58,516 nucleotides of DNA from a virus (taxonomy: Duplodnaviria; Caudoviricetes). Below, piece after piece: positions 53,773-58,502 of this stretch. The notes beneath the pieces were generated by a model. That model was not told the DNA's origin, ran no database searches, and saw nothing but the letters and a program-made list of their open reading frames with translations. The stretch spans positions 1-58,516 of the IMG/VR virus record IMGVR_UViG_3300023179_000123; one strand, given 5' to 3'. The translations under genes and the position numbers were made by a program. The first letter of the stretch is position 1; each line of letters opens with the position of its first letter.

Positions 53773-54178
53773 TTACTTCTCCTCTGAATACTCTACATTT
53801 CCAATGTCCATAGTCTGTTTGTGACAACGTATAGGTTAAATTCTTTAAGCCTTTTAATTTATCAATAGAAGATATTTGAAGATTTGCTATTAAATATGGA
53901 TCCTCTACATCACCGATTGCGAATTCATGTAAAAACTCTCCATGAGATTTTTCTTCTTCCTTTTTAGGATCCCTTAATAATTTCCATGTATCATTAAAAG
54001 CCTCAGATAAACTATTATCAATTAATTCAAATTGATCTGATAATTCGTATAAAACTGTTTTTATTTCATCCTTCGACATTTCCTCAGCAGAAATACTTAA
54101 TGCCTTAAGCATTTTAATTCTAGTATGTAATTCCATGAGATTAGTTTCAAGAGTAGAAAGTGGTCTTTGTAATTTCAT
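53747..54178 (-). CDS. Hypothetical protein
   Basis: ATGA-coupled to the ligase gene. Confidence 0.7.
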   Translation of the reverse strand: MKLQRPLSTLETNLMELHTRIKMLKALSISAEEMSKDEIKTVLYELSDQFELIDNSLSEAFNDTWKLLRDPKKEEEKSHGEFLHEFAIGDVEDPYLIANLQISSIDKLKGLKNLTYTLSQTDYGHWKCRVFRGEVNDELAKSV

Positions 54179-55506
54179 TTAATCCTCTTACTATCATCAG
54201 CAACATTTTTATCTTCGCGTAATTCAATAAAAGTCGGCAAGAATAAACTTTCTACGTTGCCACCTTTGTCCTGAATACGAGCATTATATTTGACTGTGGC
54301 AATCTTTCCTACAGTATAGTCAACCGTAAATATATCTCGTTGTTCATCGGAATACCCTGAACCAACATTTACTCGAATCGCACCATCCGCTGATTCACAA
54401 ATTAATGCGCCAAGACGATTTTTATTCTTACCAGTACCTTTTTCCCAACCAACAATCATTAGATCGCATTCAAGTTCTGCTTTAAATTTAACTTGATCTT
54501 TACTTCGTTTGTCTTCCCAAATACCATGCATGGACTTAAGAATAATACCTTCTTGCCCTTCATCCAAAAACTTATTAAATAACTTATCTGCAGTATATTG
54601 ATTATCTACTACAATAGTTTCCACAATGTTAATTAGATTCTTAAGAGCAGACTTTTTTTGAAACTTAGCATGTTTATCAACTAATTCGCTGAAACGAGTC
54701 TTGTATGGAACATTGTATTTGCCTTCGAGAAAACCATTAATAGGAATCACATCCCATAAAGTAGCACGAACCATCTCGCCTTCTTTTTGAGACTGGGTAC
54801 CTTTAATTGCTTTGGTAAGAATACCATTGCCTGTTTTACGATCAAGTGGTTTGCCTGCACTATCAACAACTAAAAGCTCACCATCAAATACACAATCAAT
54901 ACCGTAAACTTCTGCAAAGTGAATAAATGCTTTACCAAATAAATCTGAAGCAATATCTAATTGTCTACCATTGCGACTTCTAAATTCTACTTTTCCACCA
55001 CGGACGATAGCGTTGAAGCGCATGCCATCCAACTTAAGCTGGACATAGGACGGGAATCCAATTTTATCGACAAGCTTCTGTTCGAATCCAGAAGCCAACA
55101 TGACTGGGTAGGTTTTGATAAGACCCGGCCAGATTTTGTTGATAGTGGGTTCACCGACTCCGCAACGAAGGTCTTGTTTGATGATCCTCTCAATAACGCT
55201 GGCATCTTTTTCATTTAGCGATTCCAAAATATAGGTTAGGTGTTCAATGGCGGCGTTGCCTGTCTTTTTACGAGTAGCGAATTCTTTTTCAAGTTCATTC
55301 ATTGCCCAATATAAGGTCGGAACAGGGATATAGACTTTGGATTGATATACTGGGATTTTTCGAATATAAAAACTAATCATCGGATCATATGCTAAACGAA
55401 ATGCATTTTTAAGTACATCGTTGCCAGCATGTTGCCGAAGAATCGCTTCTTTGGCAAGGCGCGAATTATCTGCAGCAAGAGCTTCTAGAATTTCAAATAC
55501 GCTCAT
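54175..55506 (-). CDS. gp30: ATP-dependent DNA ligase gp30
   Basis: KLDGMR motif I, FDGEL, EGIILK, LFLPTFIELREDK. Confidence 0.95.
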   Translation of the reverse strand: MSVFEILEALAADNSRLAKEAILRQHAGNDVLKNAFRLAYDPMISFYIRKIPVYQSKVYIPVPTLYWAMNELEKEFATRKKTGNAAIEHLTYILESLNEKDASVIERIIKQDLRCGVGEPTINKIWPGLIKTYPVMLASGFEQKLVDKIGFPSYVQLKLDGMRFNAIVRGGKVEFRSRNGRQLDIASDLFGKAFIHFAEVYGIDCVFDGELLVVDSAGKPLDRKTGNGILTKAIKGTQSQKEGEMVRATLWDVIPINGFLEGKYNVPYKTRFSELVDKHAKFQKKSALKNLINIVETIVVDNQYTADKLFNKFLDEGQEGIILKSMHGIWEDKRSKDQVKFKAELECDLMIVGWEKGTGKNKNRLGALICESADGAIRVNVGSGYSDEQRDIFTVDYTVGKIATVKYNARIQDKGGNVESLFLPTFIELREDKNVADDSKRIK

Positions 55507-56557: not shown

Positions 56558-56938
56558 TTAGCGACGCATACTTGCAAAGTCTTTTGCCTGTTCGTCGCTG
56601 AAGACAGGTTGCAGACAAGATTTATGAACAATAGAAACACCCAGTACCTTGTTGCCAGTATAAACAGGATTTTCTTTTTTAGCAGCAACAGACGCACCAC
56701 TGTCATGACTTTTGATATGAGATGTAGTATCTCTACCCGGAGGAATCTTAGGTAGACTAATTGATCTAGTGATGAAACGAGGGATCCCAGTTTTCTTGGT
56801 CTCAAGTTTTTTCTGCAACTGAGACCATTCAATTTCAAGTTCTAATGCTTTGCGTTTTGCCTCAGCAGAGGCAAACTTAATCTTACCTTTTTTCTTTCCA
56901 GTTGTGGAAAGCCAGGGACCAACTAGATGCATTGTCAT
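56558..56938 (-). CDS. Conserved basic hypothetical early protein
   Basis: AGGAG RBS; YTG..VLGVSIVHKSCLQPVFS...A.DFASMRR. Confidence 0.8.
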   Translation of the reverse strand: MTMHLVGPWLSTTGKKKGKIKFASAEAKRKALELEIEWSQLQKKLETKKTGIPRFITRSISLPKIPPGRDTTSHIKSHDSGASVAAKKENPVYTGNKVLGVSIVHKSCLQPVFSDEQAKDFASMRR

Positions 56939-56962: not shown

Positions 56963-56991
56963 ATTATATAGTAAACAGTATTACTTGTCAA
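56963..56991 (-). promoter_or_regulatory. Consensus sigma70-type early promoter
   Basis: TTGACA-17 nt-TATAAT. Confidence 0.9.
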
Positions 56992-57139
56992 ATGCCCTGT
57001 ATTTCATAAAACCTATTGATCTAGAATCATAAACTGGATCTTTAGGTATTATTCCAGAAATTGACCACTCACTTGGTTTAGGTAGGTCCCTTTTGGGTGG
57101 TCTAAAGTAGTCTATTATTTTTTGGAAGGGACCGAAGGC
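56981..57139 (-). CDS. 52-codon -1 frame extension of the 57115..57612 gene (predicted frameshift product)
   Basis: Open frame AFGPFQKIIDYFRPPKRDLPKPSEWSISGIIPKDPVYDSRSIGFMKYRAFDK* has no usable start and begins at A_AAA_AAG. Confidence 0.65.
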   Translation of the reverse strand, partial: AFGPFQKIIDYFRPPKRDLPKPSEWSISGIIPKDPVYDSRSIGFMKYRAFDK

Positions 57140-57145
57140 TTTTTT
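57063..57145 (-). promoter_or_regulatory. Predicted -1 ribosomal frameshift signal (slippery heptamer plus pseudoknot)
   Basis: A_AAA_AAG 57145-57139; stem GGTCCCTT/AAGGGACC; second stem GACCAC/GTGGTC. Confidence 0.7.
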
Positions 57146-57612
57146 GCTAGTTTTTTCTTTTCTTCAACTACAGGATTTTCTGTCGGTGGCGGCAGTAATC
57201 CGGGGAAAGCCTCAAAAACTAATTCATAACTAAGAGAGGAATACTTGGTTTCAAGTTTACGATCTTTTGCTAAGCACAATGCTTCAGCTTCTTGCCAATG
57301 AATACCCTCTAGTAATTGAACAAACAATTGTTCTTTACGAATCTTGGTCAAATTTACATCATCACGAGTCCAGATGTAAATTCTTCTAAATTCAGCATAC
57401 AAATTAGTTTCTGAATATCCGTATGGAATTTCTTTATCCTTTTTAAAAGGAGGTTCACCCTCAGGTAAATTTACTTTAGCAAGAGGGTGGTAATTAATCT
57501 CAAGAAGCCCCTTTAGAGGAAGGGACTCATACTTTCGCAATACTGCAATTTTATCTTGTTTGGTTTTTACTTTTTCAACTTCCTCAAATACTTGAGGTAC
57601 AAATGTTTTCAT
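57115..57612 (-). CDS. Conserved T4-like hypothetical protein
   Basis: LPEGEPPF...LYAEFRR.Y.W...RKEQLFVQLLEGIH..EA; TAATG-coupled to rnh. Confidence 0.85.
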   Translation of the reverse strand: MKTFVPQVFEEVEKVKTKQDKIAVLRKYESLPLKGLLEINYHPLAKVNLPEGEPPFKKDKEIPYGYSETNLYAEFRRIYIWTRDDVNLTKIRKEQLFVQLLEGIHWQEAEALCLAKDRKLETKYSSLSYELVFEAFPGLLPPPTENPVVEEKKKLAKKPSVPSKK

Positions 57613-58502
57613 TAAAAATCTCCAATAACATCCATCATGTTCTTCATTTTGTTCATGATGAAATAGTTAAGCAAATGGCTTCTATCTTTTGATGGTTGAT
57701 CCACAAAGTTATTTATAATAGCTTCTTTTACATTTGATGGAATCATTGTAAAATCTACAAGTTGCTTATTTCTGTTATAGTTTTTAATAAAAATGTCATC
57801 TGTAGGCATTGAGGATGGATTATCTAACCACGACGATAACCTTTTTGAGGAAATTGGCTTTTGTCGTTCCCCAGCAACGATTGAGTCGTCTCCGGATAAG
57901 ACATTTGGGACTCCATCACCTTTATCGCCCCGGATTGTATGTTCCAATACATATCTCTCCGGCGTTGTGTCAGCTTTAACATATTTCTTTTGAATCGAAG
58001 AGAATTGTTTGACATTCTTGTACCTCTGCAATTGAATGAAATCATGATCGCCAGAAATAATCAAAAATGGTTTTGGATCTCCATCAGCAAAAGGTGAAGC
58101 GTTTACTAGATCATTTGTCTGAGACCACTCTGCAAGAACAGCAATGACATCATCAGCTTCTGCTCCGTCGACATTTACAACTCTGTATGGAAATACTGCA
58201 GCAATTTCATCTCTAATAGTAGACAAGGTCTCAAAGATCATCTTCCAGTCATAACCAGATTCTTCTCTTGCCTTTTTTCGCATTGCTTTGTAGTATGGAA
58301 AAACATCTCGGCGCCAGTAATTACGATTATCGCAAGCAATGACAATATTGCCAAATTCTTGACCGAATTTGACCTTGTAACTTCTAATCGAATTGATAAT
58401 CATATGTCGAATCAAACCAACATTGATCTCTACATCTGTTCTGCCGCCAAGTTCCATCATTAGATTGGAAATAGCGGTTTGATTGTAATCAACTACTATC
58501 AC
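57612..58502 (-). CDS. rnh: T4-type RNase H / 5'-3' exonuclease
   Basis: IVVDYNQ, YWRRDVFPYYKA.R, AEADDVI, ISGDHDFIQLQ, GDKGDGVPN. Confidence 0.95.
   Translation of the reverse strand: MIVVDYNQTAISNLMMELGGRTDVEINVGLIRHMIINSIRSYKVKFGQEFGNIVIACDNRNYWRRDVFPYYKAMRKKAREESGYDWKMIFETLSTIRDEIAAVFPYRVVNVDGAEADDVIAVLAEWSQTNDLVNASPFADGDPKPFLIISGDHDFIQLQRYKNVKQFSSIQKKYVKADTTPERYVLEHTIRGDKGDGVPNVLSGDDSIVAGERQKPISSKRLSSWLDNPSSMPTDDIFIKNYNRNKQLVDFTMIPSNVKEAIINNFVDQPSKDRSHLLNYFIMNKMKNMMDVIGDF

Follow-up and report, generated by a model that had tools for sequence, protein, structure and literature searches.

Beyond the stop codon of a short gene next to RNase H in the viral record IMGVR_UViG_3300023179_000123, the −1 frame stays open as far as the promoter of the next gene, which raises the question of whether this frame is translated and by what route ribosomes would enter it. 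The window analysed here is the entire record of 58,516 nt, estimated to be ~35% complete. Neither a tRNA gene nor a match to the gp45 family was found in these 58.5 kb, and Rfam gave zero matches at E ≤ 10.

The locus and its −1 frame

The genes and coding features of the locus are the following, all on the minus strand.

57612–58502, minus strand: upstream gene, T4-type RNase H/flap endonuclease, 296 aa (Pfam 5_3_exonuc_N and RNaseH_C; phrog_107, exonuclease)
57115–57612, minus strand: 0-frame ORF, 165 aa, DUF6433 (PF20025, E 8.9e-29; phrog_461)
57139–57145, minus strand: slippery heptamer A_AAA_AAG, codons 156–158 of the 0 frame, in X_XXY_YYZ register; an equivalent is present in 53 of 59 distinct relatives
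56981–57139, minus strand: −1 extension, 52 codons (AFGPF...WS...P.DP.YD.R...YRAFDK) followed by TAA; from translation, peptide conservation, and the codon-position and synonymous signature
56963–56991, minus strand: sigma-70-type consensus promoter TTGACA-N17-TATAAT for the next gene (56938–56558), 12/12 matches
56558–56938, minus strand: next gene, 126 aa, phrog_27048, hypothetical (ORF list and PHROG match)

The stop codon of RNase H overlaps the start of the DUF6433 gene. The best relative of the RNase H is that of Methylophilales phage Melnitz, with 48% identity; in Melnitz (L118 113–476), a tRNA-Arg(tct) and a gene for ribosomal protein S21 are located directly upstream of the RNase H/DUF6433 pair.

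The 0 frame of the DUF6433 gene ends in ...CTA GCA AAA AAG CCT TCG GTC CCT TCC AAA AAA TAA, with GCA AAA AAG at 57147–57139. The initial annotation had proposed that A_AAA_AAG at 57145–57139 directs a shift into a −1 frame that is open for 52 codons, offers no start until 8 codons before its stop, and fills the gap to the next promoter. The heptamer is indeed present in the correct register, the sole ATG of the −1 frame lies 8 codons before the stop of the 52-codon open stretch, and the 12/12 promoter at 56991–56963 overlaps the last extension codons. After a slip, the peptide read in the −1 frame would be AFGPFQKIIDYFRPPKRDLPKPSEWSISGIIPKDPVYDSRSIGFMKYRAFDK, terminated by TAA at 56983–56981, and the predicted trans-frame product would comprise 158 + 52 = 210 aa. 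In the extension region, there is no ORF of at least 30 aa with an ATG, GTG or TTG start. The −35 hexamer TTGACA sits within the final F-D-K codons of the extension, and the same bases are thus constrained both as protein and as promoter.

Taken alone, the heptamer is unremarkable and no more than chance would provide; the DUF6433 gene of the window is Lys-rich and AT-rich, and contains 5 in-frame X_XXY_YYZ heptamers. Since the signals of the window are weak in isolation, the case rests on comparison with relatives. An assembly error as the cause of the frame break is ruled out by a contig from an independent freshwater study, which spans 56977–57641 with 1 substitution and no indel.

The explanation that we favor, and hold with considerable confidence on the strength of the sequence comparisons below, is a programmed −1 ribosomal frameshift of the dnaX type that gives rise to isoforms of 165 and 210 aa, the two proteins arising because some ribosomes would slip one base back just before the stop. 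Ribosomes on the DUF6433 mRNA would arrive at GCA AAA AAG with Lys-tRNAs on AAA and AAG, and would be slowed by an 8-bp helix, the 5′ arm of which starts 5 nt downstream. In a fraction of the ribosomes, both tRNAs would re-pair one base back, such that A_AAA_AAG is read as AAA AAA, and translation would continue for 52 more codons to the TAA at 56983–56981, yielding the 210-aa protein; unshifted ribosomes would translate 7 more codons, terminate at 57117–57115, and release the 165-aa protein. The long product alone would bear the tail, composed of an amphipathic helix, a linker, and the conserved end W-S...P-x-D-P-x-Y-D-x-R...Y-R-A-F-D-K. The signals, their conservation and the coding selection on the −1 frame are observed; the slip itself, its efficiency, DNA binding and the role of the tail are inferred.

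Conservation and coding character of the extension

Relatives were collected in two scans of IMG/VR viral contigs. With a protein query, 29 of 60 matched stretches were confirmed; a second scan with an alignment query gave 295 confirmed stretches out of 426, and the best 80 of the 295 were kept. L029 and L069 were left out as truncated at contig ends, and identical sequences were collapsed, resulting in 59 distinct sequences including the window. Each sequence was scored for an in-frame slippery heptamer after the last −1-frame stop, and for a −1 frame open for at least 104 nt past the 0-frame stop. Both features are present in 53 of the 59 distinct sequences, and the −1 frame extends 104–152 nt beyond the 0-frame stop. 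The initial annotation had made its proposal depend on conservation of the extension and the heptamer; with both conserved in 53/59, the proposal stands, and the inference of 165-aa and 210-aa isoforms produced by a −1 shift at A_AAA_AAG is well supported by this comparison together with the coding signature of the −1 frame.

The heptamer is AAAAAAG in 25 of the 53 sequences, AAAAAAA in 24, CCCTTTG in 3 and CCCTTTA in 1. Four heptamer types at one place imply that the site has been kept despite sequence change. In 55 of the 59 sequences, the −1 frame stays open for 104 nt or more beyond the stop, compared with 3 of 58 scoreable sequences for the +1 frame, and in several relatives and clades the −1 frame opens merely 2–3 codons upstream of the heptamer.

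The exceptions amount to six of the 59, namely L070 (into which its duplicate L071 was collapsed), L022, L025 and L026–L028. Neither heptamer nor extension is present in L026–L028, where the next gene begins immediately. The distant relatives L022 (2549–2615) and L025 (2961–3039) retain A_AAA_AAG and have an amphipathic, hydrophobic −1 tail of 19–20 residues (VL..I.SYVV.L.FTLW) that does not contain the W...YRAFDK module. At ~1980–2130 of each of the loci L070 and L071, there is no X_XXY_YYZ heptamer and the module, MRWFFGKK...YRGFDK, is a 44-aa ORF with its own ATG. In the sequence TAATG, this ATG overlaps the stop of DUF6433; an A_AAG tetramer lies ahead of it and a 9-bp GC-rich stem behind it. 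The module of L070/L071 may be either a stand-alone peptide made by translational coupling, or the product of a one-tRNA slip site.

Selection on the extension was assessed by a codon-position test, restricted to sequence past the 0-frame stop so that there is no overlap to confound it, on 17 phylogenetically independent pairs of equal length. The 151 differences split 31/23/97 over positions 1, 2 and 3 of the −1-frame codons (chi-square P = 6e-15). Changed codons are synonymous or non-synonymous in a ratio of 83/50 in the −1 frame (62% synonymous share), compared with 16/113 and 12/115 in the other two frames, and across the 53 sequences, which had been scored for an open −1 frame, these other frames contain 81 and 270 stops within the segment. 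The extension peptides can be aligned end to end; in 22 sequences that are 22–67% identical, positions with W, R, F and D do not vary, and conservation of D, R, Y, A and K reaches 90% or more. The common layout consists of an amphipathic, aromatic-rich start (GFFERILTWF-like), an acidic or proline-rich linker, and the C-terminal motif W-S..G..P.DP.YD.R.....YRAFDK. The substitutions in the extension follow the pattern of a coding sequence that is read in the −1 frame.

These data bear directly on the alternative that 56981–57114 is untranslated and conserved on account of the promoter of the next gene together with RNA or DNA regulatory elements. While the perfect TTGACA-N17-TATAAT overlaps the last codons, and the nucleotides around TTGACA are highly conserved, the third-position excess and the synonymous share are specific for the −1 frame over the full stretch, the other two frames are interrupted by numerous stops, and RAFDK is kept with synonymous codons as well as where the promoter is displaced. 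Thus, K-F-R-A-F-D-K is kept in one clade with synonymous GCT, GAT and AGG codons and TTGATA, and RAFDK is kept in L006 and L044 though TTGACA sits after the stop, which also counters a reading of the C-terminal conservation as promoter only. An untranslated stretch appears very improbable indeed.

Coding in the −1 frame could also be accounted for by a separate protein of ~45–50 aa, produced by termination–reinitiation or from a non-AUG start, with the heptamer as a by-product of the Lys-rich tail. A-rich heptamers arise readily in such a tail, as the five in-frame ones in the gene of the window illustrate, and the ATG of L070/L071, together with the stand-alone, Met-initiated ORFs P0003 (46 aa) and P0007 (43 aa), implies that the module need not always be fused. 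However, an ATG giving at least 30 aa is present in 0 of the 53 relatives, and 29 of them, the window among these, have no ATG, GTG or TTG that would give a product of this length. The other 24 do contain a TTG or GTG inside the extension, but at unconserved positions between codons 7 and 23, all past the conserved amphipathic helix, and none of the 53 sequences has a start codon ahead of this helix. Furthermore, the heptamer holds frame and place through its four sequence types, the −1 frame opens just ahead of it, and an RNA helix follows at frameshift spacing. We regard a separate protein as improbable, and retain programmed frameshifting as the preferred explanation.

Protein databases contain few traces of the extension. 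A profile of the extension searched against 1.84 billion protein representatives returned 8 matches, seven of which are proteins of 37–93 aa, and one a 745-aa protein matched over 15 positions; no in-frame DUF6433 fusion was among them, and P0003 and P0007 are the two stand-alone matches with a Met start. A word-based search for in-frame fusions to DUF6433 among longer proteins gave 1 candidate, and none scored. The small ORFs that gene callers place here are truncated or mis-started only, and annotators gain a coding stretch of 52 residues that gene callers miss or mis-start. Chance matches only (E ≥ 4) were obtained by tblastn of the extension against the phage collection, and the DNA of the window had no match in 50,697 phage records.

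RNA signals flanking the heptamer

The candidate RNA elements downstream of the heptamer in the window are the following.

57134–57138, minus strand: spacer CCTTC, 5 nt, between heptamer and stem 1; 4–6 nt in most relatives
57126–57133, minus strand: 5′ arm of stem 1, GGTCCCTT, from complementarity; invariant in the clade of the window
57085–57092, minus strand: 3′ arm of stem 1, AAGGGACC, complementary to the 5′ arm; 33-nt loop
57097–57102, minus strand: loop arm of candidate stem 2, GACCAC, from complementarity only
57063–57068, minus strand: downstream arm of candidate stem 2, GTGGTC, on the conserved Trp-Ser codons, from complementarity only

For a signal of the dnaX type, the stimulatory structure is expected 5–9 nt downstream of the heptamer. 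The 5-nt spacer and the stem 1 described in the initial annotation (57133–57126/57092–57085) are borne out by the complementarity of the two arms, and the placement of the helix is kept in most relatives. For each locus, the best perfect helix with its 5′ arm 3–9 nt after the heptamer was compared with all other anchor positions. Stem 1 of the window (GGTCCCTT/AAGGGACC) has an energy of −9.9 kcal/mol and P 0.008, an equally good helix being found at 0.8% of the other anchors. A perfect helix of 8–14 bp that starts 4–6 nt after the heptamer (8 nt in L044) gives P ≤ 0.05 in 39/53 sequences, with a median of 0.007.

The arms of the stem differ by clade, yet stay complementary, as in GGTCCCTT/AAGGGACC, TTCTTTGAAC/GTTCAAAGAA, GGCTTCTTTG/CAAAGAAGCC and AACCTTCCTT/AAGGAAGGTT, and the position of the 3′ arm varies between near (loop of 11–15 nt), middle (28–33) and far (43–52). 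In an alignment of 51 sequences, stem 1 is 81% paired and the entire structure 74.9%, compared with 29–51% when the partner is slid. Covariation on the same alignment is weak, with 5 pairs changed on both sides versus 6.5 in shuffles (478/500), and a covariation score that is attained by 11/500 shuffles. The folding energy of the window is ordinary: the 84 nt after the heptamer have a z of −0.90, and 38 of 200 shuffles fold equally well. Across the relatives, the minimum free energy of 60 nt is ~1 SD below background, with a median percentile of 0.11 and 6/53 sequences at ≤ 0.05. Stem 1 is supported by its position and by the change of both arms from clade to clade, and may act as a stimulator.

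A Shine–Dalgarno (SD)-like element, GGAG or GGGAGG, is present 9–10 nt upstream of the heptamer in 19/53 sequences, including all three CCCTTTG sequences. The loci with such an element include L019–L021, L039/40/48/56/74/85/100 and L078/98/101, and the spacing is dnaX-like. Its strongest form, at −10.6 kcal/mol, is found in the C_CCT_TTG clade, where a close downstream stem is mostly missing. No upstream SD-like element is present in the window, where the best anti-SD duplex has −1.0 kcal/mol; such an upstream stimulator is accessory, and not a requirement for membership of the dnaX type.

The flanking elements also help to discriminate between ribosomal and transcriptional slippage. In the latter, RNA polymerase would add one A in the run of six or seven, and some mRNAs would then encode the long form in frame. 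Such runs of 6 or 7 A make up 49 of the 53 sites, and one extra A would shift the downstream sequence into the −1 frame; however, runs of 6–7 are short for efficient transcriptional slippage, and 4/53 sequences use C_CCT_TTG or C_CCT_TTA, which contain no homopolymer. Nor is there any length variation at the run among the DNA contigs, and the conserved helix at 4–6 nt and the SD-like element at 9–10 nt would be stimulators that act on ribosomes. Transcriptional slippage is, in our view, distinctly improbable, and a ribosomal slip remains the preferred reading.

The initial annotation went further and proposed that the loop of stem 1 pairs downstream to form an H-type pseudoknot. The complementarity of GACCAC and GTGGTC holds at 57102–57097 and 57068–57063, whereas the pseudoknot itself fares less well: stem 2 is short, at 6 bp, the loops of 23, 4 and 16 nt are unusually long for an H-type fold, and a 6-bp match between loop and downstream sequence is frequent in shuffles. 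Within the clade of the window, stem 2 is extendable to 8 pairs with 95.8% of cells paired, and shows one compensatory pair (U-A, C-G, U-G), with 326/500 shuffles equal at n = 3 distinct sequences. Among the other relatives, at least 6 bp can be formed with the region of the Trp codon in 49/52, beating shuffles at 0.05 in 11/52; the corresponding match of loop and downstream sequence in L017 is ATCCGAC/GTCGGAT. Stem 2, and with it an H-type pseudoknot, is a possible additional element.

In the largest clade (e.g., L046 at ~1995–2010; columns 28–40 of the 51-sequence alignment), the stem 1 loop sequence CTGACC contains the TGA of the 0 frame. Its complement, GGTCAG, is found at the conserved Trp-Ser codons ~60 nt downstream.

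With four heptamers, near and far stems, and an SD-like element that is present or absent, the relatives provide a natural series of frameshift signals for the study of stimulator exchange in evolution.

Related systems and a possible role for the tail

The tau/gamma frameshift of E. coli dnaX combines A_AAA_AAG with a stem-loop a few nt downstream and an SD-like element ~10 nt upstream in a replication gene; its isoforms are alike N-terminally and diverge in a C-terminal part that binds partners, and the shift yields the short product. The DUF6433 locus shares with dnaX the heptamer, a candidate downstream stem, the association with replication and isoforms that would differ at the C-terminus, as well as the SD-like element in 19 of the 53 relatives. 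It differs in that the shift would yield the long product, in the unrelated gene family, and in the window being without an SD-like element. In the capsid gene of T7, gene 10A/10B, a −1 shift near the 0-frame stop lengthens the C-terminus of a minority product by ~50 residues. This is likewise a phage gene with a −1 shift close to the stop and an extension of ~50 residues, but the slippery site is another one, and the protein considered here is non-structural and probably DNA-binding.

A third parallel is the −1 shift in the tail assembly chaperone genes G/GT, which gives a short and an extended form, and which some lineages have replaced by separately encoded forms, as PMC10885494 cites for T4-like phages. 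The likeness lies in a conserved −1 shift near the 3′ end and in lineages without the shift (cf. L070/L071), the difference in the gene family and role, and in the alternative arrangement, which here is a stand-alone tail ORF and not a second fused copy.

No paper was found under the name DUF6433. The initial annotation had described the event as a recoding not reported before, which agrees with the literature consulted: within the portions covered on T4-like phage frameshifting, ligase and clamp, there was no description of a frameshift in the DUF6433 gene. The event would be a known −1 frameshift trick, in a gene family where none has been described so far in that literature.

Conserved recoding sites in phage genes are, to our knowledge, few once the tail-chaperone, capsid and transposase classes are set aside. 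The present site is located in the replication/repair module of T4-like phages that form a large, uncultured freshwater group. DUF6433 itself occurs in 475 phage records, mostly cyanophages, and two tblastn runs for non-cyanophage homologues gave cyanophages only among the matches listed. Heptamer and extension are absent at the end of the DUF6433 gene in S-RIM50, S-PM2, Pelagibacter phage HTVC008M and Methylophilales phage Melnitz (in Melnitz according to the annotation table). With these four cultured phages lacking the arrangement, the frameshift would characterise an uncultured lineage of freshwater T4-like phages; the sequencing runs that contain the sequence are lake and freshwater metagenomes.

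The DUF6433 protein matches PF20025 with 100.3 bits against a gathering cut-off of 38.9, residues 8–121 corresponding to profile positions 1–114 of 115. An AlphaFold2 model based on 20 homologues has a pLDDT of 86.7, with a disordered Lys-rich tail from about residue 146. The best Foldseek matches are to the DNA-binding domain of T4 DNA ligase (5wfy and 6dt1; probability 1.00, E 1e-3 to 4e-3) over residues 1 to ~140, with TM 0.73 by 5wfy and 0.59–0.61 by query, and further matches are to other ATP-dependent ligases. The predicted fold of the DUF6433 domain thus resembles that of the DNA-binding domain of T4 DNA ligase, which links an uncharacterised Pfam family to the DNA-binding domain of DNA ligases. 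In PMC6212786, the T4 domain is described as a bundle of seven helices gripping the minor groove, in which the long loop that joins helices 3 and 4 contacts DNA. The model of the DUF6433 protein is similarly a helical bundle in which helices 3 and 4 are joined by a long loop, and in both isoforms the domain would presumably bind DNA.

Modeled alone, the tail has a low pLDDT of 64.9 and consists of one helix at residues 3–12 followed by coil, as expected of a docking tail. Its conserved ...YRAFDK end is probably a docking motif, and the most likely role of the tail is docking to a partner in lagging-strand processing. More speculatively, and as a tentative proposal only, the two isoforms could form a tau/gamma-like pair for lagging-strand repair. 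Through the domain that resembles the ligase DNA-binding domain, both would bind nicked or flapped DNA, and the shifted one alone would be tethered, via YRAFDK and the amphipathic helix, to a component of the replisome, for example RNase H, ligase, clamp or SSB. How much of the protein is tethered and how much is free would then depend on the slip rate, which clades might tune by different stimulators, i.e., a proximal or distal stem, an SD-like element, or possibly a pseudoknot onto the Trp codon. A predicted complex of the tail with three copies of the sliding clamp from a related complete genome scored 0.09, with the mark at 0.32, and carries no weight either way.

The likeness to ligase does not extend beyond the DNA-binding domain. 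In contrast to T4 ligase, the DUF6433 protein lacks the nucleotidyl-transferase and OB domains, and is therefore not a ligase. An identity as ATP-dependent DNA ligase was rejected on the grounds of its 165 aa, a Pfam assignment to DUF6433 only, and no detectable sequence similarity to the ligase of the window or to PDB chains. The window does contain a gene for a 443-aa ATP-dependent DNA ligase (54175–55506, minus strand), ~1.6 kb downstream of the DUF6433 gene and in the same orientation, and the phage thus has a full ligase as well as a separate protein resembling a ligase DNA-binding domain. In Synechococcus phage S-SCSM1 (L112 2007–2504), a 165-aa DUF6433 homologue without catalytic domains is labelled ‘DNA ligase’, a label that was probably carried over because the protein resembles the DNA-binding domain of ligase in fold or profile.
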